DNA from: Escherichia coli | Lineage (GTDB): Bacteria > Pseudomonadota > Gammaproteobacteria > Enterobacterales > Enterobacteriaceae | Assembly (NCBI RefSeq): GCF_013315695.1 | Contig: NZ_CP054353.1 | DNA length: 64,000 nucleotides | Direction: 5' to 3' (one strand) | In this document: positions 786 through 46,668 of the stretch, piece by piece | How positions within the stretch are numbered: the first letter of the stretch is position 1 | Layout: every line of letters starts with the position of its first letter | The notes under the pieces: generated by a model | What the model saw: only the letters and a program-made list of their open reading frames with translations | The model's database searches: none | Told to the model about the DNA's origin: nothing | Position numbers and translations under genes: made by a program

Positions 786-1673
786 TTAGCCATTCTTTCT
801 TCCCGTTTTCAGTCCTCGATGGAAATCGTTAATTCGCTTAATGGTTTTAACCGCACGCTGCGGCACTGCGGAAGCTACCGACCAGACAATCATTTCCAGA
901 CACAACAATACCGTACCATGTAGCGGCGTTTTCCCTTTTTCATCCCCGCGCGGAACATGAATCACGATACTGGCGTCTTTGCTAAAACGTGAATCCAGCG
1001 CGTTTGTCAGCAAAATAACAGGGATCCCCAGCCGCCTCGCCTCACGAAGCGTTGTCAGCCCTTCCCGGTGCGCAGATTTTTGCGCCATCATGATCAGAAC
1101 ATCGCCACGTTGAAGCGCGATCAGTTGCTCGGCAAGGCCAATACCCGTACGGTTTAGTGCCGTGGCAGGCAAACCTATGCGGTTGAATAGTCGTGCGGTA
1201 TAGTCCGCCAGGATACCCGAAGCGCCAATGCCAAAAATAGCGACTTGCCGTGCCTGCACCAACAACGCTACAGCTTGCGCAAGCGCGTGGCGGTTTTCAG
1301 GCTCTGACAGGACATTACAGGTATACAAATGCCCTTCAAGAACAAAGTCGATTGCGGTGTTAACATCGCTCGTCAAGTTACTCACCGTCGTAGACATCTT
1401 TTCGCTGGAACTAAGGGCTGGACCAAGCCACTGTTCCAGAGTGCGTTTCAGATCACGCAGCCCGGCAAACCCCAGGGCCTGTATAGCCCTGATAACAGTG
1501 GCATCGGAAGTGTTCAACGTGGCCGCAATTTCCATCGCCGTTTGCTCGAGTACCACTTCACGATGCTCATTAATGTAGCTGGCGACAGCTCTTAACCCAG
1601 GCGTTAACTGACTCGCGCGAGTGCGAAAACGCTCACCAAAAATATCAACCCGCGCTTTATCTTTCTGGATCAT
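786..1673 (-). CDS. RpiR/MurR-family transcriptional regulator (N-terminal HTH, C-terminal SIS sugar-phosphate-binding domain)
   Basis: 295 aa ORF; HTH region followed by SIS-like glycine-rich motif (VAIFGIGASG); start overlaps upstream gene stop by 4 nt. Confidence 0.8.
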   Translation of the reverse strand: MIQKDKARVDIFGERFRTRASQLTPGLRAVASYINEHREVVLEQTAMEIAATLNTSDATVIRAIQALGFAGLRDLKRTLEQWLGPALSSSEKMSTTVSNLTSDVNTAIDFVLEGHLYTCNVLSEPENRHALAQAVALLVQARQVAIFGIGASGILADYTARLFNRIGLPATALNRTGIGLAEQLIALQRGDVLIMMAQKSAHREGLTTLREARRLGIPVILLTNALDSRFSKDASIVIHVPRGDEKGKTPLHGTVLLCLEMIVWSVASAVPQRAVKTIKRINDFHRGLKTGRKNG

Positions 1674-2617
1674 TTAGCCTCCGGTAGAGGTCGCCCTGCA
1701 ATTTGTGATTGTATCTGCGCAGCCATCAGCCCCAGTGATGCAAAGGAGTTAGAAATTGCCTCTTCACGAGAAATCAGCACATAACGCCCGGAACGACAGG
1801 CAGTCAGAAACTGACACCATCCCGGCATGACTTTTTCCATTGCTGCCAGCTCATCCTGAGGTTTACCACCGGTGTCACCGCGCCAGGTTGCAAAAACAAA
1901 ATCGGCATCCAGTTCAGGTAAACGCTCCGCGCTCACATCCATTCGCCCACCTTCAGGAATGCTCTCAATCAGCGGCGGAAAACGAAAACCAGCATCGCGT
2001 AATACCCGCCCCAGCGAATGATAGCTATGCATCACATTAATTTTTCCCTGGTTTGCCTGAATCACCGATACCGTTATTTTTTGGCTGTCCAGCGTCGCCT
2101 TCAGCGCATTGATTTGTGCCTGATAGCGGCGTTCAAGTATCGCCAGCTGCGACTGCGTTCCTGTAAGTTCTGCCAGCTTGCGATAGATTTCTGGCGCGCC
2201 CCCTTTGAGATGATCAATGCTCACCGTGGGCGCAATTTTTTCAAGTTGTTCAATGGGCGTATTACGGGTCGGTTCTGTGATGATCAAGTCAGGCTTTGCC
2301 GCCACAATCGCTTCAATATCAATATCAGCGGTACCAATAAAGGCGATCGATGAATTATCAAAGTCGACACCTGTCAATAACGCGCCAGATCGAATGAAAT
2401 GGCTACCGTCAGGCCGAGTTCGCCCGTGGCTGGCGACAGGAGGTACACCGAGCTCAATCAGAGGAATAGTGATATCAAGATCGTGTAAAGAGACAATTCT
2501 CTTTGGATGAGCAGGAACAGTGACTTTGCGCCCTAAATCATCAGTAAATACCTGAACAGGTTCTGTTGCACGGGAAAAAAATGACAACAGTATCAGCAGA
2601 GAAAAAAATAAACGCAT
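1670..2617 (-). CDS. periplasmic substrate-binding protein of a siderophore/heme/B12-type (FecB-like) ABC importer
   Basis: ORF 1670..2680; start placed at internal Met preceding a signal peptide (MRLFFSLLILLSFFSRA). Confidence 0.75.
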   Translation of the reverse strand: MRLFFSLLILLSFFSRATEPVQVFTDDLGRKVTVPAHPKRIVSLHDLDITIPLIELGVPPVASHGRTRPDGSHFIRSGALLTGVDFDNSSIAFIGTADIDIEAIVAAKPDLIITEPTRNTPIEQLEKIAPTVSIDHLKGGAPEIYRKLAELTGTQSQLAILERRYQAQINALKATLDSQKITVSVIQANQGKINVMHSYHSLGRVLRDAGFRFPPLIESIPEGGRMDVSAERLPELDADFVFATWRGDTGGKPQDELAAMEKVMPGWCQFLTACRSGRYVLISREEAISNSFASLGLMAAQIQSQIAGRPLPEAK

Positions 2618-2627
2618 ATAACTCCCG

Positions 2628-3677
2628 TTAAAAACTGTTCCTGCGCTGCCAGAGCAGTAGCAAAAAAAATGGTCCACCAATCAGTGAGATAATGATTCCG
2701 GCAGGCAGTTGCAAAGGCAAAAAAGCCAAACGACCAATGCTATCCGCCAGAATAACTAACAACGCCCCCGATACCGCACTCCCCAGCAGTAATGTCGTCT
2801 GCCCGCCACGTAGAATAAAACGTGATATATGGGGTGCTATCAATCCGACAAAACCGATGTTACCAACACACGAAACGCAGACGGCTGTCAGGATTATGGG
2901 TGCGGCGACACGTAACAACGCCAGACGAGAACTATTCACCCCTAACCCGGTTGCAACCTGATGACCAAGCAGAGCGATATCCGCCGTCCTGGCGGTGAAC
3001 AGCAATAAAAGAGCGGCTGGCAACATCCAACAGGCTGAAATACCGACTAACATCCAGTTAGCTGCATGCAGGCTTCCCGATAACCACATCAATGCAGTTT
3101 GTACATCTCGAACATCTGCAGTGGTCATAAATACACCGATACCGGCGGCGAAAAACCAAGAAACACCAATACCAATCAGAACAAATCGCGGGCGGGAAAT
3201 ATCGCGCGCACAAAAAATCACGATTAAAGCCACCAACAGGCCACCAGCAAGACCAGCCACTGGACGCCAGAACACTCCCAGCATTGGAAACTGGAAAATC
3301 AGCCACAGCACAGCCACGCTACATCCTTCTTTGACGCCGATTAACCCAGGATCGGCAAGGCCGTTACGTGCAATGGATTGCATTGCGGCCCCTGCCATAC
3401 CTAACATGGCCCCGCATAGCAATGCCATGATGACTCTCGGCAAGCGAATATCCTGCACAATATAACGTGCGTCTGTGCTTACGTTTTCTGGAGCAAACAA
3501 CGCTCGTCCTACTTCCGATGCCGGAACAGAGAAAGAACCCTGCATCAGACCGAATATCAGTATTCCAACCGCAAACAGAAACAGCCCACCAAGCAACAGC
3601 AGATTTTTAGGGCGTACCAGTGTCGAAAACTTACCAACACGTAGTGGGCGTAGCCCGACGTTCATTATCCGACTCAT
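2628..3677 (-). CDS. ABC importer permease, FecCD family
   Basis: 349 aa polytopic membrane ORF with FecCD-like sequence. Confidence 0.8.
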   Translation of the reverse strand: MSRIMNVGLRPLRVGKFSTLVRPKNLLLLGGLFLFAVGILIFGLMQGSFSVPASEVGRALFAPENVSTDARYIVQDIRLPRVIMALLCGAMLGMAGAAMQSIARNGLADPGLIGVKEGCSVAVLWLIFQFPMLGVFWRPVAGLAGGLLVALIVIFCARDISRPRFVLIGIGVSWFFAAGIGVFMTTADVRDVQTALMWLSGSLHAANWMLVGISACWMLPAALLLLFTARTADIALLGHQVATGLGVNSSRLALLRVAAPIILTAVCVSCVGNIGFVGLIAPHISRFILRGGQTTLLLGSAVSGALLVILADSIGRLAFLPLQLPAGIIISLIGGPFFLLLLWQRRNSF

Positions 3678-4657
3678 TTGAACATCCTCGTCGCCATAAT
3701 GACAAAAACAGGCGCACCAACTAACGCCGTCATGACACCGGTCGCTAATTCATGGGGCGTGAAAAGCGTACGGGCAATAATATCTGCCAGTAATAACAAA
3801 AGTGCGCCGACACAAGCTGAAAGAGGGAGCAGAACGCGCAGATCCGCTGATACCAGGCGCCGGACAATCTGCGGTACTAGCAGGCCGACAAAACCAATGG
3901 GGCCAGCAATCGATACGGCTGCGCCACAGAGCAACGCGATCGCAAGCAGGGTGAATGTTCGCGTGCGGAGTACAGAGACGCCCAGCCCCTGCGCCATGCG
4001 ATCGCCCAGTGCCAACATGTTAAGGGAGGGTGCAAGGTAAAGGGCTAACACAAATCCCCCCAGAGAAAACCAGGCGGACGTACCCAGCGTCGCCCAATCC
4101 TGCCCCGCTAAATCACCTGCTAGCCATGTCCGCATCGCCAGCAGTGTTTGTTCGTCAAGAATCAGGATTGCAGCCGTTATTGAGGACACGAACGCCGATA
4201 GCGCCACGCCGCATAAAGTAACTTTCATTGGCGTTAACCCTGAACGCCCTGCGGAGGAAAGCAGCAATATCAACAGGAACAATAACGCGCCGCCCGTAGA
4301 TGCCAGCAGTGGGCGTCCAACCGGAAAGGCCAGCCCAAGCGCACTGGCAGCAACGACAGCAAGAGCGGCTCCGGCATTTAAGCCTAAAATATGTGGCTCC
4401 CCCAATGGGTTACGAATGACAGCCTGCAACAAAGCACCAGCAACTCCAAGAGAAGCACCGGTAAGCAATGCTGCCGCTAAACGCGGCAAACGGAGTCTTA
4501 CAATTACGTTGTGATCGAAGTTTTGCGGTTCAAAATGAAGAAATGCCTGCAATACCGTTTGTGGTGCAATAAATCGGGCACCAATCCCTGGATATACCAC
4601 GCATCCCACCAGCAGTAAGGCGAGGAAAATTACAGTAACCAGCCCTGTGCGCATCAT
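3674..4657 (-). CDS. ABC importer permease, FecCD family
   Basis: 327 aa polytopic membrane ORF; 4-nt overlaps with both neighbours. Confidence 0.8.
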   Translation of the reverse strand: MMRTGLVTVIFLALLLVGCVVYPGIGARFIAPQTVLQAFLHFEPQNFDHNVIVRLRLPRLAAALLTGASLGVAGALLQAVIRNPLGEPHILGLNAGAALAVVAASALGLAFPVGRPLLASTGGALLFLLILLLSSAGRSGLTPMKVTLCGVALSAFVSSITAAILILDEQTLLAMRTWLAGDLAGQDWATLGTSAWFSLGGFVLALYLAPSLNMLALGDRMAQGLGVSVLRTRTFTLLAIALLCGAAVSIAGPIGFVGLLVPQIVRRLVSADLRVLLPLSACVGALLLLLADIIARTLFTPHELATGVMTALVGAPVFVIMATRMFK

Positions 4658-5463
4658 ACTTTTTCTACACCACGAAACGGCATGAAGAACGGCTTTCCCG
4701 TCAGAGGATTTATTGATGCGTGAACATCAACGTCAAAGACAGCTTTTACCAGCTCAGGCGTGCAATGCTCCCCCTCATTCAACACACGCACCACTTTCCC
4801 CTGGCGTAAAAATATCAACGTATCGCCATAATTGACGGCAAAATTCAGATCATGCAACACCACGACGACTGTACGCCCGTGATGACGTGTTAAATCATGT
4901 AATAACTCAAGAATTTCAACCTGATAACGTAAATCAAGCCAGGTTGTGGGTTCATCCAGCAGGATATAAGGCGTCTTTTGCGCCAACACCATCGCAATCC
5001 AGCAACGCTGACGCTGCCCGCCAGAGAGTTTTTCAACAGGTAAATGTGCAAACTCCTGCGTACCCGTTAATTTCAGGGCCTCTTCTACCGCCAGCTCATC
5101 GGCGTCGCTCCATTGACGAATGAAATTCTGCCAGGGAAAACGCCCACGCGACACCAGTTCATAAACGGTTAAGCCCTCCGGCAATAATGGCGACTGCGGC
5201 AAGATCCCAAGTCTACGGGATAACGCTTTCGTTGGTTGCTCGTGAATCGCTTTGCCATCAAGCAATATCGAACCGCCCATGGGTTGCAAGATACGTGCAA
5301 TGGTGCTGAGCAACGTCGACTTTCCACAGCCGTTTGCCCCAACCAGAACGGTCATTTTTTCTGTGGGAACGGAGAAAGAAACACCATCAACAATGATCTT
5401 CTTGTGATACCCGGCAGAAACATTGTCGAGGATCAGCCCCTGCCCTTTTGCGTTATGTGCCAC
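4654..5463 (-). CDS. ABC importer ATP-binding protein (FecE-like)
   Basis: Walker A GANGCGKST, ABC signature LSGGQRQR, Walker B ILLDEPT. Confidence 0.85.
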   Translation of the reverse strand: MAHNAKGQGLILDNVSAGYHKKIIVDGVSFSVPTEKMTVLVGANGCGKSTLLSTIARILQPMGGSILLDGKAIHEQPTKALSRRLGILPQSPLLPEGLTVYELVSRGRFPWQNFIRQWSDADELAVEEALKLTGTQEFAHLPVEKLSGGQRQRCWIAMVLAQKTPYILLDEPTTWLDLRYQVEILELLHDLTRHHGRTVVVVLHDLNFAVNYGDTLIFLRQGKVVRVLNEGEHCTPELVKAVFDVDVHASINPLTGKPFFMPFRGVEKV

Positions 5464-5469
5464 GTGTAC

Positions 5470-5836
5470 GCCAACTTAATCAAAGACAAACAAAAATAAA
5501 ACTCATTCTCCTTTGAGAGTTTGACGCCACAAAATGTAGTAGTCAAGCAGTTAAAAGCCACACAAAAACAAGGTAAATAACAGGTAAAATATTTTTGCAC
5601 ATAAAAATAAAAACATTAAATATCAATAATTTAAAAGCAATCAAATTGTATAAACTTTTCATAAAAACACATGTAGCAATTTTTTGTTATTTCTCATTTA
5701 CTACTACATTACTGCGTGATTGAATGATTCTCAATTACATATCCGATGGCGAAATAACAAACGGATAGTGCTTAGTGAGCAATAAGAAACAATTTTCACT
5801 CGCGACAATCCGCGAGTTTTTGGGATAACAGACTAA
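5470..5836. promoter_or_regulatory. AT-rich divergent promoter region between the ABC operon and the receptor gene; weak Fur-box-like motif near 5717-5738
   Basis: about 370 bp of AT-rich sequence between divergent starts; tgattgaatgattctcaattac resembles the Fur consensus only partially. Confidence 0.3.
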
Positions 5837-7978
5837 ATGGCTATGTTCACACCTTCATTCTCAGGACTCAAAGGTCGGGCGCTCTTTTCACTGCTTTTTG
5901 CGGCACCGATGATTCATGCAACAGACTCTGTAACGACCAAAGATGGCGAAACAATCACTGTTACAGCAGATGCAAATACCGCAACTGAGGCAACCGATGG
6001 TTATCAACCTCTGAGCACCTCTACGGCGACATTAACCGATATGCCGATGCTGGATATCCCGCAGGTGGTCAATACGGTTAGCGATCAGGTTCTGGAAAAC
6101 CAGAATGCGACAACGCTGGATGAGGCGCTTTATAACGTCAGTAACGTGGTACAGACCAATACATTAGGCGGGACTCAGGATGCTTTTGTACGCCGTGGGT
6201 TTGGCGCAAACCGGGATGGCTCCATCATGACCAACGGCCTGCGAACTGTACTTCCTCGCAGTTTCAACGCCGCCACAGAACGTGTGGAAGTGCTAAAAGG
6301 TCCGGCCTCCACGCTGTATGGCATTCTCGATCCTGGTGGATTGATTAACGTCGTGACCAAGCGCCCGGAAAAAACATTCCATGGTTCTGTCTCAGCCACG
6401 TCCTCCAGTTTTGGCGGAGGCACTGGGCAACTTGATATCACAGGTCCCATTGAAGGCACTCAGCTGGCATACCGCCTGACGGGGGAAGTGCAGGATGAAG
6501 ATTACTGGCGAAACTTCGGTAAAGAGCGCAGTACATTTATTGCCCCGTCACTCACCTGGTTTGGTGATAATGCAACAGTAACCATGCTCTATTCCCATCG
6601 GGACTATAAAACTCCGTTCGATCGTGGAACGATTTTCGACCTTACGACGAAACAGCCCGTAAACGTTGATCGAAAAATACGTTTTGACGAACCGTTTAAT
6701 ATTACAGATGGTCAGTCCGATCTGGCGCAACTCAACGCAGAATATCATCTCAATAGCCAGTGGACAGCGCGCTTTGATTACAGCTACAGCCAGGATAAAT
6801 ACAGCGACAATCAGGCTCGCGTTACCGCGTATGATGCAACGACAGGAACGCTGACACGGCGTGTTGATGCAACTCAGGGATCTACCCAGCGTATGCATTC
6901 TACTCGTGCGGATCTGCAAGGGAATGCTGATATTGCTGGGTTCTATAATGAGATTCTGGGTGGGGTGTCATATGAATATTATGATCTTCTGCGCACAGAT
7001 ATGATTCGCTGTAAAAACGCTAAAGATTTCAATATCTACAACCCCGTTTATGGCAATACCAGCAAATGCACAACGGTTTCGGCGTCGGACAGTGATCAGA
7101 CGATCAAACAGGAGAGCTACTCAGCGTATGCACAGGACGCGCTCTATCTGACCGATAACTGGATTGCCGTCGCCGGGATCCGCTATCAGTATTACACGCA
7201 GTATGCGGGTAAAGGCCGTCCTTTTAATGTCAATACTGACAGCCGCGATGAACAATGGACGCCCAAACTGGGGTTAGTCTACAAACTGACGCCATCGGTA
7301 TCCTTATTTGCCAATTATTCGCAAACATTTATGCCGCAGTCGTCAATTGCCAGCTACATTGGCGATCTTCCACCGGAATCATCTAATGCTTACGAAGTCG
7401 GGGCAAAATTCGAGCTATTCGATGGTATCACCGCAGATATTGCGCTGTTTGATATCCATAAACGTAACGTGTTGTATACCGAAAGTATTGGTGATGAAAC
7501 CATTGCCAAAACGGCAGGCCGTGTTCGTTCAAGAGGGGTAGAAGTCGACCTTGCGGGAGCATTAACTGAAAACATTAATATCATTGCCAGCTACGGCTAT
7601 ACCGATGCTAAGGTTCTGGAGGATCCTGATTATGCAGGGAAACCATTGCCGAATGTTCCTCGTCATACCGGTTCGCTATTCCTGACTTATGACATTCATA
7701 ACATGCCTGGCAATAACACACTGACGTTTGGCGGTGGTGGACATGGCGTAAGCCGTCGTTCGGCAACCAATGGGGCTGACTATTATCTGCCAGGCTATTT
7801 CGTTGCCGATGCCTTCGCTGCATACAAAATGAAATTGCAGTATCCGGTCACACTGCAATTAAACGTCAAAAACCTGTTTGATAAAACGTATTACACCTCT
7901 TCCATCGCCACAAATAATCTGGGGAATCAGATTGGCGATCCGCGTGAAGTGCAATTCACGGTGAAAATGGAATTTTGA
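5837..7978 (+). CDS. TonB-dependent outer-membrane receptor
   Basis: 713 aa; signal peptide, TonB-box-like ETITVTA, plug and barrel motifs, C-terminal Phe. Confidence 0.85.
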   Translation: MAMFTPSFSGLKGRALFSLLFAAPMIHATDSVTTKDGETITVTADANTATEATDGYQPLSTSTATLTDMPMLDIPQVVNTVSDQVLENQNATTLDEALYNVSNVVQTNTLGGTQDAFVRRGFGANRDGSIMTNGLRTVLPRSFNAATERVEVLKGPASTLYGILDPGGLINVVTKRPEKTFHGSVSATSSSFGGGTGQLDITGPIEGTQLAYRLTGEVQDEDYWRNFGKERSTFIAPSLTWFGDNATVTMLYSHRDYKTPFDRGTIFDLTTKQPVNVDRKIRFDEPFNITDGQSDLAQLNAEYHLNSQWTARFDYSYSQDKYSDNQARVTAYDATTGTLTRRVDATQGSTQRMHSTRADLQGNADIAGFYNEILGGVSYEYYDLLRTDMIRCKNAKDFNIYNPVYGNTSKCTTVSASDSDQTIKQESYSAYAQDALYLTDNWIAVAGIRYQYYTQYAGKGRPFNVNTDSRDEQWTPKLGLVYKLTPSVSLFANYSQTFMPQSSIASYIGDLPPESSNAYEVGAKFELFDGITADIALFDIHKRNVLYTESIGDETIAKTAGRVRSRGVEVDLAGALTENINIIASYGYTDAKVLEDPDYAGKPLPNVPRHTGSLFLTYDIHNMPGNNTLTFGGGGHGVSRRSATNGADYYLPGYFVADAFAAYKMKLQYPVTLQLNVKNLFDKTYYTSSIATNNLGNQIGDPREVQFTVKMEF

Positions 7979-16603: not shown

Positions 16604-18400
16604 ATGTTTGATAAATATAGAAAAACACTCGTAGCCGGAACTGTGGCGATAACCCTGGGTTTGTCAGCATCGGGGGTGATGGCTGCGGGTTTTAAACCAG
16701 CGCCGCCTGCCGGGCAACTGGGTGCGGTCATTGTCGATCCCTACGGCAATGCACCACTGACCGCTTTGGTTAACTTAGATAGCCATGTTATTTCTGACGT
16801 CAAAGTTACCGTCCATGGGAAGGGCGAAAAAGGCGTAGAAATCAGCTATCCCGTGGGTCAGGAATCACTAAAAACTTACGATGGTGTACCGATTTTTGGT
16901 CTTTATCAGAAATTTGCTAACAAAGTGACCGTTGAGTGGAAAGAAAACGGCAAGGTCATGAAAGATGATTATGTGGTGCACACTTCGGCCATCGTCAACA
17001 ATTACATGGATAACCGCTCCATCTCCGACCTACAGCAAACCAAAGTCGTTAAAGTCGCGCCAGGTTTTGAAGATCGCCTCTATCTGGTTAATACCCACAC
17101 CTTTACCGCCCAAGGTTCCGATCTCCACTGGCATGGTGAGAAAGATAAAAATGCCGGTATCCTTGATGCGGGTCCGGCAACTGGCGCACTCCCTTTTGAT
17201 ATCGCGCCCTTTACTTTCATCGTCGATACCGAAGGTGAATACCGCTGGTGGCTGGATCAAGACACTTTCTACGATGGTCGTGACCGCGATATCAACAAGC
17301 GTGGTTATCTGATGGGTATCCGCGAAACGCCACGCGGCACCTTTACCGCTGTACAAGGTCAGCACTGGTACGAGTTCGACATGATGGGGCAGGTGCTCGA
17401 AGATCACAAACTACCGCGCGGATTTGCTGACGCTACTCATGAATCCATTGAGACGCCAAATGGCACAGTATTGTTGCGCGTAGGTAAGAGCAATTACCGT
17501 CGCGATGACGGCGTACACGTCACCACCATTCGTGACCATATCCTCGAAGTCGATAAATCTGGTCGCGTTGTAGATGTATGGGATCTGACGAAGATCCTCG
17601 ATCCGAAACGCGATGCACTGCTCGGCGCGCTGGATGCAGGTGCAGTTTGCGTTAACGTTGACCTTGCCCATGCAGGACAACAGGCAAAACTGGAACCAGA
17701 TACACCGTTCGGCGACGCTCTGGGTGTAGGGCCAGGCCGTAACTGGGCGCACGTTAATTCCATCGCTTATGACGCAAAAGATGACTCAATTATTCTCTCT
17801 TCTCGTCACCAGGGTGTTGTGAAGATTGGTCGTGATAAGCAAGTGAAATGGATCCTTGCACCCTCTAAAGGTTGGGAAAAACCGCTGGCCAGCAAGCTGC
17901 TGAAACCGGTTGATGCTAACGGTAAGCCAATTACCTGTAACGAAAATGGCCTGTGCGAAAACTCAGACTTCGACTTTACCTACACCCAGCATACCGCCTG
18001 GATTTCCAGCAAAGGAACGCTCACCATTTTTGATAATGGCGATGGTCGTCATCTGGAACAACCTGCCTTACCAACCATGAAATATTCCCGCTTTGTGGAA
18101 TATAAGATTGATGAGAAGAAAGGCACCGTTCAGCAAGTGTGGGAATACGGTAAAGAACGTGGCTACGATTTCTATAGCCCAATCACCTCCATCATTGAAT
18201 ATCAAGCCGACCGTAACACCATGTTTGGCTTCGGTGGTTCTATTCATTTGTTCGATGTCGGGCAGCCAACCGTCGGTAAGTTGAACGAAATCGATTACAA
18301 AACCAAAGAAGTGAAAGTGGAAATCGACGTGCTGTCAGATAAACCCAATCAGACTCACTATCGTGCATTGTTAGTCCGTCCACAACAGATGTTCAAATAA
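16604..18400 (+). CDS. assT: periplasmic arylsulfate sulfotransferase
   Basis: 598 aa, signal peptide, sequence recognised as ASST as described in uropathogenic E. coli. Confidence 0.8.
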   Translation: MFDKYRKTLVAGTVAITLGLSASGVMAAGFKPAPPAGQLGAVIVDPYGNAPLTALVNLDSHVISDVKVTVHGKGEKGVEISYPVGQESLKTYDGVPIFGLYQKFANKVTVEWKENGKVMKDDYVVHTSAIVNNYMDNRSISDLQQTKVVKVAPGFEDRLYLVNTHTFTAQGSDLHWHGEKDKNAGILDAGPATGALPFDIAPFTFIVDTEGEYRWWLDQDTFYDGRDRDINKRGYLMGIRETPRGTFTAVQGQHWYEFDMMGQVLEDHKLPRGFADATHESIETPNGTVLLRVGKSNYRRDDGVHVTTIRDHILEVDKSGRVVDVWDLTKILDPKRDALLGALDAGAVCVNVDLAHAGQQAKLEPDTPFGDALGVGPGRNWAHVNSIAYDAKDDSIILSSRHQGVVKIGRDKQVKWILAPSKGWEKPLASKLLKPVDANGKPITCNENGLCENSDFDFTYTQHTAWISSKGTLTIFDNGDGRHLEQPALPTMKYSRFVEYKIDEKKGTVQQVWEYGKERGYDFYSPITSIIEYQADRNTMFGFGGSIHLFDVGQPTVGKLNEIDYKTKEVKVEIDVLSDKPNQTHYRALLVRPQQMFK

Positions 18401-18417
18401 TTAAGAAGGGAATAAAA

Positions 18418-19086
18418 ATGTCGAAATTAGGGATCTCATCACTATTTAAAAGCATACTGCTTACTGCAGCTTTGGCTGTTTCATTTACCGCCTCTGCATT
18501 TACCGAAGGCACGGATTACATGGTTCTGGAAAAACCTATTCCGAATGCAGACAAAACGCTGATTAAGGTATTCAGCTACGCCTGCCCGTTCTGTTACAAG
18601 TACGACAAAGCGGTTACCGGTCCGGTATCGGAAAAAGTGAAAGATATCGTTGCTTTCACGCCGTTCCATCTGGAAACCAAAGGTGAATACGGCAAACAAG
18701 CAAGCGAAGTCTTTGCGGTCTTGATCAATAAAGATAAAGCAGCAGGCATTTCCTTATTTGATGCTAACTCTCAGTTTAAGAAAGCCAAGTTTGCCTACTA
18801 CGTGGCTTATCACGACAAAAAAGAACGCTGGTCTGACGGTAAAGATCCGGCTGCTTTTATCAAAACCGGTCTGGATGCCGCAGGTATGAGTCAGGCGGAT
18901 TTTGAAGCGGCACTGAAAGAACCAGCGGTTCAAGAAACACTGGAAAAATGGAAAGCCTCTTATGATGTCGCCAAAATCCAGGGGGTTCCAGCCTATGTCG
19001 TTAATGGTAAGTACTTGATCTACACCAAGAGCATCAAATCCATCGACGCGATGGCAGACCTTATCCGTGAGTTAGCAAGCAAATAA
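18418..19086 (+). CDS. dsbL: periplasmic thiol:disulfide oxidoreductase DsbL (DsbA paralogue)
   Basis: 222 aa, signal peptide, CPFC active-site motif. Confidence 0.8.
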
Positions 19087-19100
19087 CAGGGAAACAGGCT

Positions 19101-19772
19101 ATGGGTATTAAGGGAATGTGGAAAGATCTTCGCACATCACCAGTTGACACACTGGTCAGATGGCAGGAGCAACGCTTGTTGTGGTTGTTAATGGCCGTTG
19201 CGATGGGCGCGTTAATTATCCTGGCGCACTCTTTCTTCCAGATCTATCTCTACATGGCACCCTGTGAGCAATGTGTATACATTCGCTACGCCATGTTTGT
19301 GATGGTTATTGGAGGATTGGTTGCAGCGATCAACCCAAAGAACATCATCCTAAAGCTAATTGGCTGCGTGATGGCATTTTACGGCAGCATTTTGGGACTG
19401 AAGTTTTCGCTCAAACTGAACGATATCCACCATGCAGTACATAATCCGGATCCCGATTCACTGTTTGGCGTACAGGGTTGCTCTACCGATCCAACTTTTC
19501 CCTTTAACCTGCCGCTGGCACAGTGGGCACCAAATTGGTTCAAGCCTACCGGGGATTGTGGCTATGACGCACCAATCGTTCCTGATGGCGTCACACTGAG
19601 CAGCACGCAACAGTGGTTTGTGGAAATGTATCAGCAATCTGAAGGCTGGTATCTGCTACCACCATGGCATTTTATGAATATGGCTCAGGCTTGTATGCTG
19701 GCTTTTGGTATGTGTCTGGTGCTGCTGGTCATTATGAGTGGCGCATGGGCGCTTAAAATCATCAGAGGCTAA
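19101..19772 (+). CDS. dsbI: membrane disulfide oxidoreductase DsbI (DsbB paralogue)
   Basis: 223 aa polytopic protein with CxxC (CEQC) and a second Cys pair. Confidence 0.8.
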
Positions 19773-20748: not shown

Positions 20749-21522
20749 ATGTCAGTACCTCTCATTCTGACCATACTGGCGGGGGCAGCCACGTTTATTG
20801 GCGCGTTTCTCGGCGTTCTCGGGCAAAAACCCTCGAACCGCTTACTGGCGTTTTCGCTAGGATTTGCGGCGGGGATCATGTTGCTCATCTCATTAATGGA
20901 AATGCTTCCTGCCGCATTAGCCGCCGAAGGAATGTCACCTGTGTTGGGTTATGGAATGTTTATCTTCGGTCTGCTTGGCTATTTTGGCCTGGACCGCATG
21001 TTGCCACATGCGCATCCGCAGGATTTAATGCAAAAATCGGTGCAGCCGTTGCCAAAATCGATCAAGCGCACAGCCATTCTGCTCACTCTCGGCATCAGTC
21101 TGCATAACTTCCCGGAAGGGATTGCCACCTTTGTCACGGCGAGCAGCAACCTGGAGCTGGGCTTTGGCATCGCACTGGCCGTTGCGTTACACAATATTCC
21201 TGAAGGTCTGGCGGTTGCAGGCCCGGTTTACGCGGCAACGGGGTCTAAACGCACCGCGATTCTTTGGGCGGGGATTTCTGGACTGGCAGAAATTCTTGGT
21301 GGTGTGCTGGCGTGGTTAATCCTCGGTAGCATGATTTCCCCGGTGGTCATGGCGGCAATCATGGCGGCGGTTGCAGGAATTATGGTGGCGCTCTCGGTTG
21401 ATGAATTAATGCCGCTCGCCAAAGAGATTGACCCTAATAATAACCCCAGCTATGGCGTACTATGTGGAATGTCAGTGATGGGATTCAGTTTAGTGCTGCT
21501 ACAAACGGCGGGAATTGGTTAA
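20749..21522 (+). CDS. zupT: ZIP-family zinc transporter ZupT
   Basis: ORF 20707..21522; start placed at [12 protein letters not shown] (257 aa). Confidence 0.9.
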
Positions 21523-21579
21523 AAGCAACATCAGAAGTTGTCCAGCGCATGGACAACTTCTGCCAGCTTCACTAAAGCC

Positions 21580-21750
21580 TTATTCTACCTTTTCGGCTGT
21601 CTCTTCTCTCGTACTGTTTAAGTATTTGTTCCGCGCTTCAAGCAGTGCGTCTCTGTCCTGGCGAAACGCCCGACAATAACGTTTCAAATGCAGGAAATAA
21701 CCCACAACAACAAGAGCAATCAATACAATCCAGTACCAGGCGATAAACAT
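21580..21750 (-). CDS. small single-pass membrane protein, hypothetical (about 56 aa)
   Basis: ORF with TAAGGG RBS 7 nt upstream of ATG; one predicted TM helix then charged tail; no homologue recognised. Confidence 0.4.
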   Translation of the reverse strand: MFIAWYWIVLIALVVVGYFLHLKRYCRAFRQDRDALLEARNKYLNSTREETAEKVE

Positions 21751-21940
21751 CCTTTTACCCTTAATATTTAACAATACTAAACATTTAGCGCATAAATTTC
21801 ACATATCCTTTTTCGGATATATTCATATGGTCGCATAATAACGGAACAATTATATGATTTTGATCATAATGAAAAAGAATGCCTGATATTAATGAAATTT
21901 TCTCATAGAAAGAGAAGCGGAATTAACATCTTGCTTAGCA

Positions 21941-21980
21941 GGGAAAAATAAAAACCGAAGCCTGCTACAACTTCGGTTTC
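21941..21980 (-). terminator. rho-independent terminator of ribB
   Basis: stem aaaccgaag/cttcggttt followed by a T-run on the minus strand. Confidence 0.6.
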
Positions 21981-22011
21981 TTGATTAAGGCAGTAAATTA
22001 AGCAGCGGTTT

Positions 22012-22665
22012 TCAGCTGGCTTTACGCTCATGTGCCTGACGGTATGCCACCAGGTCTTCAATAGTCACGAGCGCCATATTGTGTTTATTGGCAAACTCAA
22101 TGCACTCTGGTGCACGCGCCATCGTGCCATCGTCATTAGTCAGCTCACACAGCACACCAGCCGGTTTAAAGCCTGCCAGCGTCATTAGATCAATAGTTGC
22201 TTCAGTATGACCGCCACGCGTCAGTACTCCACCTGCCTGCGCGCGAAGTGGGAAAACGTGGCCCGGGCGATTCAGATCAGAAGGTTTTGCGTCATCGGCA
22301 ATCGCTGCGCGAACGGTCGTAATACGGTCAGCGGCAGAAACACCGGTAGTCACACCTTCAGCCGCTTCAATGGTCACGGTAAAACCGGTGCCATAGGCGC
22401 TGGTGTTATTTTCTACCATCATTGGCAGATCGAGTTGTTTACGGCGATCTTCAGTAATGCACAGGCAAACAATACCGCTACCGTGGCGAATGGTCAGCGC
22501 CATCTGCTCAACGGTCATGGTTTCTGCCGGGAAGATCATATCGCCTTCGTTTTCACGGTCTTCATCATCAAGCACCATTACACCGCGTCCTTCACGCAGC
22601 GCAGCCAGTGCATTTTCAACACGTTCGAAAGGCGTACCAAAAGAGGAAAGTAGCGTCTGATTCAT
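22012..22665 (-). CDS. ribB: 3,4-dihydroxy-2-butanone-4-phosphate synthase
   Basis: 217 aa ORF, sequence recognised. Confidence 0.95.
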
Positions 22666-22689: not shown

Positions 22690-22930
22690 TGGTTACCAGA
22701 ATCAGGGCAGTCTTAGGAGTGGCGGCATATAGCCAAAATAACGTGAGCGGGTCCATGCCCGACAGAATCGTTACTCTCTCCCATCCGGACTCTAACCGTC
22801 GGCCCCGGAATTACACCGGATCTGCTGTCCTTTGAGTTCGCACCCAAAGCGCTCGCGGGCTTTCAACTGAGTTGATTTACCGCCGGTGGGGAATTTCGCC
22901 CCGCCCTGAGAATAAGCGGATTCACTATAA
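22690..22930 (-). ncRNA. sroG: FMN riboswitch (RFN element) in the ribB leader
   Basis: minus-strand sequence AGGGCGGGGCGAAATTCCCCACCGGCGG ... GGATGGGAGAGAGTAACG matches RFN conserved blocks; bounds approximate. Confidence 0.7.
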
Positions 22931-23038: not shown

Positions 23039-23338
23039 ATGATTGACCCGAAAAAAATTGAGCAAATCGCTCGCCAGGTTCACGAATCAATGCCTAAAGG
23101 AATCAGGGAGTTCGGGGAAGATGTGGAGAAAAAAATCCGCCAAACCCTACAAGCGCAGCTGACACGTCTCGATCTGGTAAGCCGCGAAGAATTCGACGTT
23201 CAGACGCAAGTCCTGTTACGGACTCGTGAAAAACTGGCGTTACTGGAACAGCGCATCAGTGAACTGGAAGCGCGCAATAATTCGGTAGCAGATCTTCAAT
23301 CTCCTCCGGCTATCCCGCCTATTGATAAAGCAGAATAA
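23039..23338 (+). CDS. ubiK: ubiquinone biosynthesis accessory factor UbiK (YqiC)
   Basis: ORF 22979..23338; start placed at [13 protein letters not shown]. Confidence 0.8.
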
Positions 23339-23372
23339 AGCAACACAAAAACGGGCCAGACGGCCCGTAATA

Positions 23373-23573
23373 TCAGTGTTCTAATTCAAGTTCTCTGGTT
23401 TGCATCATTTGTTGGCAATACCAGGCATAACGTGCGCAAAACCAGGTTCTATGTTCTTCATCCATGTTACCAGTAACGGCCAGAATATCGACCGGGCGAC
23501 CTTCTGCGTGCATTCTGGCAAAACTACGCGCCAGGAAATCGAAATTATTTAAAGAATTAAGACTATGATCCAT
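23373..23573 (-). CDS. glgS: glycogen synthesis / surface composition regulator GlgS
   Basis: 66 aa from [10 protein letters not shown]. Confidence 0.85.
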
Positions 23574-26159: not shown

Positions 26160-26319
26160 ACCCTCTTCTATGAATAATCCCTGGCCCAAAAAGCCGGGGA
26201 TTTTTTATATCTGCGTTCCGCTAAAAAGTACAAATGTTCAGGTTGTTACAGCGTTTTTCGAGCCGACTCGGGGAAGAGAAAACTGCATAAGAGAAAGCAT
26301 TGCGCGGGGTCTGGCGCTC

Positions 26320-26480
26320 ATCAACAATCGGGGAGTCAGCAAGGGGCTGAAACGGGAAAGCCCCTCCCGAGGAAGGGGCCTTATAGAAGGAAAGGGTTAT
26401 GATGAAGTTCGTCATCATACTGGTTGTGTTGTTACTGTTAAGTTTCCCGACTTACTAACAACTCATCAGAGGGGGGAGAA
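26320..26480 (-). ncRNA. Sib-type antisense RNA (antitoxin) overlapping the ibs ORF; bounds approximate
   Basis: inferred from the ibs ORF and flanking GC hairpins (ggggct...agcccc, cccctcc...ggaagggg); K-12 carries sib/ibs loci between yqiK and hldE. Confidence 0.45.
26399..26458 (+). CDS. Ibs-family type I toxin (19 aa hydrophobic peptide MMKFVIILVVLLLLSFPTY)
   Basis: tiny ORF with AAGGAAAGGG RBS; peptide nearly identical to E. coli Ibs toxins. Confidence 0.65.
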   Translation: MMKFVIILVVLLLLSFPTY

Positions 26481-26577
26481 ATCCTCCCTTACCCTTGTTC
26501 CTTTACTTTAGGTTGAAAAAACAACAGCGTCAATAGGTCTATCCGGCACAACGCGAGAACTGTGAAGCGCTTTCCGG

Positions 26578-46104: not shown

Positions 46105-46668
46105 ATGCAGCAAGGATACTACTCTCTCCCCGCCCTTATTTCCGCTCTCGATGCCGGGAAAAAGGTGAAATACCTGTGGTTCTGGGGCCATCAACCTGCC
46201 GCGAATCACGAAATTACCGCCTCTTGCTTTAGCCAGTGGTGGCAGGGTTCGCCTTTTACCTATGATGGTATAACCTATGCCACCGCAGAACACTGGATGA
46301 TGGCGGGAAAAGCGCGGCTGTTTAATGACAGTAAAACACTTGCCAGAATTCTGGCGGCGGCGACCCCGGCAGAAGCCAAAAAGCTGGGGCGACAGGTGAC
46401 AAACTTTGACGAGCAATGCTGGCAAGCTTGCTGCTTTGATCTGGTCTGCGAATGGAACTACCATAAATTTAGCCAACATTCGGCATTAAAAACATTCCTG
46501 CTGAATACGCAGCCTCGCATTCTGGTTGAAGCCAGCCCGGTGGATAAAATCTGGGGGATTGGCCTTGCAAAAGATCATCCCCATGCCGGTGTGCCATCTC
46601 ACTGGAAGGGGAAAAATCTGCTGGGATTTGCGCTTATGGTAGTCAGAGACCGTTTGGCGGAAGAATAA
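46105..46668 (+). CDS. NADAR-family protein (YbiA-like, DUF1768)
   Basis: 187 aa; motifs shared with E. coli YbiA (TAEHWMMAGK vs TSEHYFQAQK; IWGIGL...KGKNLLGFALMVVRDRL vs YWGDGGHGKGKNRLGYLLMELREQL); AAGGA RBS. Confidence 0.7.
   Translation: MQQGYYSLPALISALDAGKKVKYLWFWGHQPAANHEITASCFSQWWQGSPFTYDGITYATAEHWMMAGKARLFNDSKTLARILAAATPAEAKKLGRQVTNFDEQCWQACCFDLVCEWNYHKFSQHSALKTFLLNTQPRILVEASPVDKIWGIGLAKDHPHAGVPSHWKGKNLLGFALMVVRDRLAEE

Follow-up and report, generated by a model that had tools for sequence, protein, structure and literature searches.

Chaperone-usher fimbriae of the Yqi and Yqi-like types are related, mutually exclusive, and differently placed in Escherichia coli, and the Yqi-like locus, represented in K-12 by ygiL-yqiGHI, is a locus of phylogroups A and B1, with phylogroup E also among the carriers (Wurpel et al. 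2013, PMC3559732). The ExPEC adhesin I cluster spans 4,975 bp, occurs mostly in phylogroup B2, and is found in neither K-12 nor O157:H7 (Antao et al. 2009, PMC2771359). According to the K-12 MG1655 annotation, ubiK (b3042) ends at 3185130 and glgS (b3049) lies at 3191739-3191939, and the ~6.6 kb between them contain ygiL, yqiG (a pseudogene interrupted by IS2I, which carries insC5/insD5), yqiH, and yqiI. Yqi/Ygi fimbriae, that is, ExPEC adhesin I, are reportedly also the subject of a 2011 study by Spurbeck and colleagues. Presence or absence of the Yqi-like operon is an already catalogued, common strain polymorphism of E. coli. The importance of a further example is therefore small, since the difference in this cryptic operon is known and the ubiK-glgS site is empty in about two-fifths of complete genomes. 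What we add here is which way the change went, where the import ends within ubiK and glgS, how the tail of K-12 UbiK is altered, and how many genomes show each of the three states of the locus.

The ubiK-glgS junction compared with K-12

We analyzed one stretch of 64,000 nucleotides, hereafter the window. In it, ubiK (yqiC; 23039..23338, + strand, 99 amino acids, stop codon TAA at 23336-23338) and glgS (23373..23573, − strand, 66 amino acids, stop codon TGA read from 23375-23373) converge on an intergenic spacer that, by direct reading, measures exactly 34 bp between the stop codons (23339..23372). These coordinates follow from the open reading frame list and are the same in the RefSeq annotation of E. 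coli AF3, a blood culture isolate from the UK with a complete RefSeq chromosome, from which the window differs at 5 of 64,000 bases. Over 24 kb, the closest complete genomes were AF3 and MSB1_4I (100%) and MS 21-1 (99.9%), followed by a large group at 99.0%; in all of these close relatives the 24-kb query was covered as a single uninterrupted match.

The first-pass annotation had described the two genes as convergent and about 34 bp apart, and had placed between them in K-12 several kilobases with ygiL-yqiGHI and an IS2. The sequence and the MG1655 annotation agree with both statements: when the window is compared with K-12 MG1655, the genes are not adjacent in K-12 but lie ~6.6 kb apart. The window thus shares with K-12 the exact genes that flank the Yqi-like operon, ubiK and glgS, but lacks the operon itself, with 34 bp in place of ~6.6 kb, and has the preinsertion junction with its short spacer and an ancestral UbiK tail. 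A tblastn search of the whole 64-kb window with the proteins of the K-12 interval (E ≤ 1e-2) returned no homologue of YgiL, YqiG, YqiH, or YqiI, the sole match being UbiK, and the fimbrial operon proteins of CFT073 likewise had no tblastn match in the window. The result at the junction is a structural comparison, to which a test against chance does not apply.

The difference between the two haplotypes extends beyond the insert into both neighboring genes. By BLAST, the window is homologous to K-12 up to 23269, 23 codons before the ubiK stop, and again from 23342, just before a hairpin in the spacer, so that 23270-23341 forms a core with no BLAST-alignable match. Divergence is raised on both sides of this core, and the segment replaced in the K-12-type haplotype corresponds to 23150..23438 of the window. 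In 50-bp bins on the ubiK side, identity is 1.00 up to 23150 and then falls to 0.88, 0.90, 0.60, and 0.51, while on the glgS side it rises from 0.69 through 0.88 to 1.00 from 23439 onward. Within ubiK itself, nucleotides 1-111 are 100% identical in the window, K-12, and CFT073. Nucleotides 112-231 of K-12 ubiK are only 87.5% identical to either the window or CFT073, with many of the changes synonymous, whereas the same part of the gene in other Escherichia species is 89-97% identical to the window, so that K-12 is more diverged here than any of them. Over these nucleotides, the window sequence has 95.8% identity with CFT073 and 96.7% with Escherichia sp. MOD1-EC7003. Excluding IS2, the K-12 insert has a GC content of 40%, versus 51% for the window. 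No direct repeats or mobile-element scars were visible at the ends of the K-12 insertion in the window/K-12 alignment, and we accordingly rejected transposition or site-specific integration of the K-12 block, preferring homologous replacement.

The replaced segment includes the C terminus of UbiK, which is 96 amino acids long in K-12 and 99 in the window, with different tails. The motif PAIPP(V/I)D marks the tail in the window, CFT073, most other Escherichia species, Citrobacter, and Salmonella; E. albertii and Trabulsiella have a shorter version of it, and in K-12 another sequence stands in its place. PAIPP-type UbiK proteins of 98-100 amino acids were observed in the window, CFT073, O157:H7, and other genera (window 23150-23338, compared with 2952-3131 of the K-12 locus, L001). 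Among named entries returned by a protein search with K-12 UbiK, the K-12 tail occurred only in E. coli/Shigella. A diverged K-12-like tail (protein P0022, ending ...ENRSTVTVVKDDQETLPPTL) is encoded by two short contigs from metagenomes, the Logan contigs SRR33454298_20152 (L031, 1-2233) and ERR3179213_130767 (L032, 1-1365), which derive from an enterobacterium whose nucleotide identity to E. coli is 77-83%. On these contigs, a spacer of 191 bp separates the adjacent genes ubiK and glgS, the site contains no fimbrial gene, and glgS is again flanked by the usual hairpin. Occurrence of the K-12-like tail in a taxon free of fimbrial genes at this position indicates that the K-12 tail is a genuine alternative rather than a fusion or read-through artefact. 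This taxon was considered as donor of the K-12 block and ruled out, since nucleotides 112-231 of its ubiK are 79% identical to K-12 and 80% identical to the window. It also has a 70-amino-acid GlgS, and its 191-bp spacer contains an extra, perfect 14-bp hairpin (CCGTAATTTACTCC...GGAGTAAATTACGG). Because the import boundary lies inside ubiK, functional work on UbiK/YqiC in K-12 and in Salmonella has used proteins with differing tails; work in K-12 uses a protein whose last ~20 residues are unlike those of B2 strains, O157:H7, the strain studied here, and Salmonella.

Direction of change and the spacer hairpin

To place the two arrangements in an evolutionary order, we relied on an outgroup scan for GlgS with one genome per species, comprising 27 loci; neither E. 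fergusonii nor a standard E. coli representative was among them. We found ubiK directly beside glgS in E. albertii, three further Escherichia lineages, E. whittamii, nine Citrobacter loci, two Salmonella loci, and three Trabulsiella loci. Adjacency and convergence were seen in all 18 outgroup loci containing ubiK, with ~35-80 bp between the protein matches, and a hairpin directly follows the ubiK stop codon in the window, in CFT073, and in 18/18 of these outgroup loci. K-12-type yqi genes beside glgS were encountered in the scan only on three short contigs in misbinned MAGs (L019, L029, and L030); on two of these contigs the proteins are 100% identical to those of K-12 and on the third 93-98% identical, which identifies all three as E. 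coli DNA. Together, adjacency in the outgroups, the tail type, and the hairpin indicate that the empty junction is ancestral and the K-12 arrangement derived. The window has both marks of the ancestral junction, namely, convergent adjacency of the two genes and the hairpin together with the PAIPP(V/I)D tail.

We therefore consider it very probable that the window preserves the ancestral, uninterrupted ubiK-glgS junction of Enterobacteriaceae, that this strain never received the K-12-type operon at this locus, and that the K-12 arrangement was derived by import. Most simply, the K-12 haplotype would have arisen when an AT-rich block of ~5.3 kb entered by homologous replacement. A diverged donor would already have had the operon between ubiK and glgS, and crossovers at about nucleotide 112 of ubiK and within the 3′ end of glgS would have brought in the block. 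Such an exchange would also have carried the foreign 3′ end of ubiK, and hence the different UbiK tail, while the IS2 in the K-12 block may be a later addition.

The first-pass annotation had left two histories side by side, in which the strain either never acquired the fimbrial cluster or cleanly lost it. The operon is indeed absent, and the match to the outgroups favors the former history at this locus; the latter does not agree with flanks that show no divergence. Loss as such would be unsurprising given how often the operon decays: IS2 interrupts yqiG in K-12, IS insertions occur in other strains (H101 and H104), and in the record named "E. coli 042" a stop codon lies within the usher gene. 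However, precise deletion from an ancestor with a K-12-type ygiL-yqiGHI block would leave divergence behind in the 3′ half of ubiK and at the 3′ end of glgS, as well as a UbiK tail of the K-12 type. The window has none of these; its ubiK nucleotides 112-231 are, by the identities given above, closer to CFT073 and MOD1-EC7003 than to K-12, and around the hairpin its tail and spacer agree at every base with those of the outgroups. Without diverged flanks or the K-12 tail, clean loss is rejected at the level of the locus, and we regard it as highly improbable.

A history that would leave the same sequence behind is allelic replacement, in which a lineage once of the K-12 or CFT073 type recovered the empty ancestral haplotype when it recombined homologously with a different strain of the species. 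The region is evidently exchanged by recombination, as seen in the crossover-like divergence gradients at the K-12 block and in the diverged yqiD of the CFT073 haplotype; identity of the flanks to K-12 and CFT073 fluctuates, and a reimported ancestral allele would look identical at this locus. Nevertheless, nothing speaks positively for such an event, the nearest relatives (99-100% over 24 kb) are all uninterrupted here, and the empty state is common to O157:H7 and ~20% of genomes, so we hold replacement to be unlikely, if somewhat less so than deletion. As for a repeat-flanked insert collapsed during assembly or scaffolding, this is conceivable only as a general possibility: no repeats flank the junction, just the 5 bases mentioned above separate the window from AF3 over 64 kb, and the junction lies within one uninterrupted match in 2,067 of 5,425 complete genomes, which is not the signature of an artefact and reduces its chance to a negligible one. 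An ancestral junction that never received the operon thus remains the reading we prefer.

The spacer of this junction is largely taken up by an intrinsic-terminator-like element (23341..23368, − strand), whose 7-bp stem, ACGGGCC/GGCCCGT, encloses a loop of 4 nucleotides at 23351-23368. The stem is a perfect 7 bp with six GC pairs. On the glgS strand, the hairpin is followed by TTTTTGTGTT (23341-23350), and a terminator scan matched the − strand at 23368..23351; past the glgS stop codon, this strand therefore has the GC-rich stem-loop and U-rich tract by which intrinsic terminators are recognized. In the ubiK direction (+ strand), the sequence after the hairpin is AAUAU, which makes only a weak U tract. 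RNA folds of the two strands gave −17.3 and −18.0 kcal/mol (about −18 for the glgS strand), with z scores of −4.95 and −3.25 against shuffled controls. The stem, ACGGGCC-N4-GGCCCGT, is invariant across Escherichia species, Citrobacter, Salmonella, Trabulsiella, and the enterobacterium from metagenome contigs, while the loop varies among these genera (AGAC, AAAT, TGAC, GCAA, GTAA, GATG, TTTT, TTTC, and AACC), and K-12 has kept the hairpin beside glgS despite the insert. An invariant stem with a variable loop fits the pattern expected of a conserved hairpin function. With its clear T tract, the hairpin is a predicted intrinsic terminator of glgS, and it probably closes ubiK transcripts too, although the U tract on that strand is weak. 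The element resembles bidirectional intrinsic terminators between convergent E. coli genes in being a single GC-rich hairpin located between an A tract and a T tract; it differs from them in that a convincing U tract is present only on the glgS-strand side, and its terminator activity is a prediction.

The yqiD-ribB site and the distribution of the operons

A second site used by related fimbrial operons lies close by, between yqiD and ribB. In the window, yqiD (21580..21750, − strand, from the AF3 annotation) forms its left flank, and ribB (22012..22665, − strand, from the open reading frame list and the AF3 annotation) stands between the two alternative sites, with its FMN riboswitch at 22769-22917. 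The intergenic region between yqiD and ribB (21751..22011 by the AF3 annotation) is 261 bp long and contains no Yqi/ExPEC adhesin I operon; in 50-bp bins, this empty site is 98-100% identical to the empty site of K-12. In CFT073, ubiK and glgS are adjacent, and a four-gene fimbrial operon lies between yqiD and ribB, 1.3 kb upstream of the ubiK-glgS site, where a 5.5-kb block takes the place of window positions 21869-22013 (BLAST breakpoints). Protein identities to YgiL, YqiG, YqiH, and YqiI are 59, 55, 51, and 38%, respectively, so by protein sequence the CFT073 operon is homologous to that of K-12 yet clearly distinct. The window thus lacks both this operon, known as Yqi/Ygi or ExPEC adhesin I, and its K-12 homologue, the two having 38-59% amino acid identity across their four genes. 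Related operons occupy the yqiD-ribB site in E. whittamii (65-91% amino acid identity) and in Trabulsiella (52-64%). Nucleotide identity between CFT073 and the window is 66-83% over 21501-21900, and K-12 yqiD shares the window allele. The diverged yqiD of CFT073 suggests that the B2 haplotype, too, was imported together with its flank. In a direct comparison of CFT073 yqiD (L002, 5544-5714) with window positions 21580-21750, the C-terminal third of the protein is rewritten.

We determined how often each state occurs among 5,426 complete RefSeq E. coli genomes, 5,425 of which contain the locus. The ubiK-glgS junction is uninterrupted in 2,067 of the 5,425 (~38%), and in 1,080 genomes (~20%) the whole stretch from zupT to yqiJ is uninterrupted, with both sites empty. 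DNA of the K-12-type operon was detected in 3,361 genomes (~62%), in 3,269 of them at a coverage of at least 80%, and DNA of the CFT073-type operon in 994 (~18%). The three counts add up to 5,435, close to the 5,425 genomes that contain the locus, so these states are nearly exclusive and nearly exhaustive: the two related fimbrial operons, with alternative sites 1.3 kb from each other, hardly ever occur in one genome. By the same counts, at most a handful of the "empty" genomes could hide a copy elsewhere, which leaves almost no room for a copy of the operon elsewhere in strains of this type.

Each operon type comprises deeply separated allele classes. K-12-type records divide into those at ≥99% identity (1,573) and those at 90-95% (1,720), and CFT073-type records are distributed over ≥99% (84), 95-99% (367), and 90-95% (539). 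In several strains the usher gene is interrupted by an IS element. The record named "E. coli 042" carries the K-12-type operon, and it is doubtful whether this record represents the classical EAEC 042. The O157:H7 genome examined has neither operon, unlike the phylogroup E listing of Wurpel et al.; both of its sites are empty, its gene order is zupT-yqiD-ribB-ubiK-glgS-yqiJ as in the window, and it is 98.6% identical over a 3-kb query. O157:H7 differs from the window in lacking the assT-dsbL-dsbI insert that the window carries between ygiC and ygiD.

We can only tentatively suggest what these patterns may mean for the 1.5-kb region from yqiD through ribB and ubiK to glgS. Possibly, it harbors three long-lived haplotypes, one with the K-12-type operon at ubiK-glgS, one with a xenologous B2-type operon at yqiD-ribB, and one null. 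The two fimbrial haplotypes would each have come from another species through homologous replacement, and that of the K-12 type would have rewritten ~20 C-terminal residues of UbiK, making the K-12 form the derived one. The exclusivity of the operons might then reflect selection, through functional redundancy or incompatibility, and not linkage only. Taken as a whole, we regard this wider scenario as less likely than not.

Other features of the window

Several other segments of the window also stood out. Between ygiN and parE, positions 786-7978 encode a MurR/RpiR regulator, a siderophore ABC transporter (a binding protein, two FecCD permeases, and an ATPase), and a TonB-dependent receptor, a cluster that we take to resemble the Fit system of ExPEC and to be absent from K-12. 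The assT-dsbL-dsbI insert, encoding an arylsulfate sulfotransferase and its dedicated Dsb pair, occupies 16604-19772; it is present in CFT073, while O157:H7, which lacks it, has ygiC and ygiD 37 bp apart. Between rpoD and mug, where K-12 is not known to have a gene, the annotation places a ybiA-like gene for a riboflavin-intermediate N-glycosidase at 46105-46668.

Near the 3′ end of yqiK, which encodes a flotillin, the segment 25939-26039 is 66-82% identical to K-12 and 76% identical to CFT073, in surroundings that are 90-100% identical; judged by these identities, it is locally hypervariable or recombinant. The yqiK-hldE interval (26160-26577) holds one Ibs/Sib type I toxin-antitoxin module (ibsE, 26399-26458), while K-12 and the record named "E. 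coli 042" have two, sibD/ibsD and sibE/ibsE. Finally, an IS1A-family element (59154-60077), whose transposase involves a programmed frameshift, lies directly after an amino acid permease gene in the AF3 annotation and is followed by a truncated open reading frame upstream of ygjJ.
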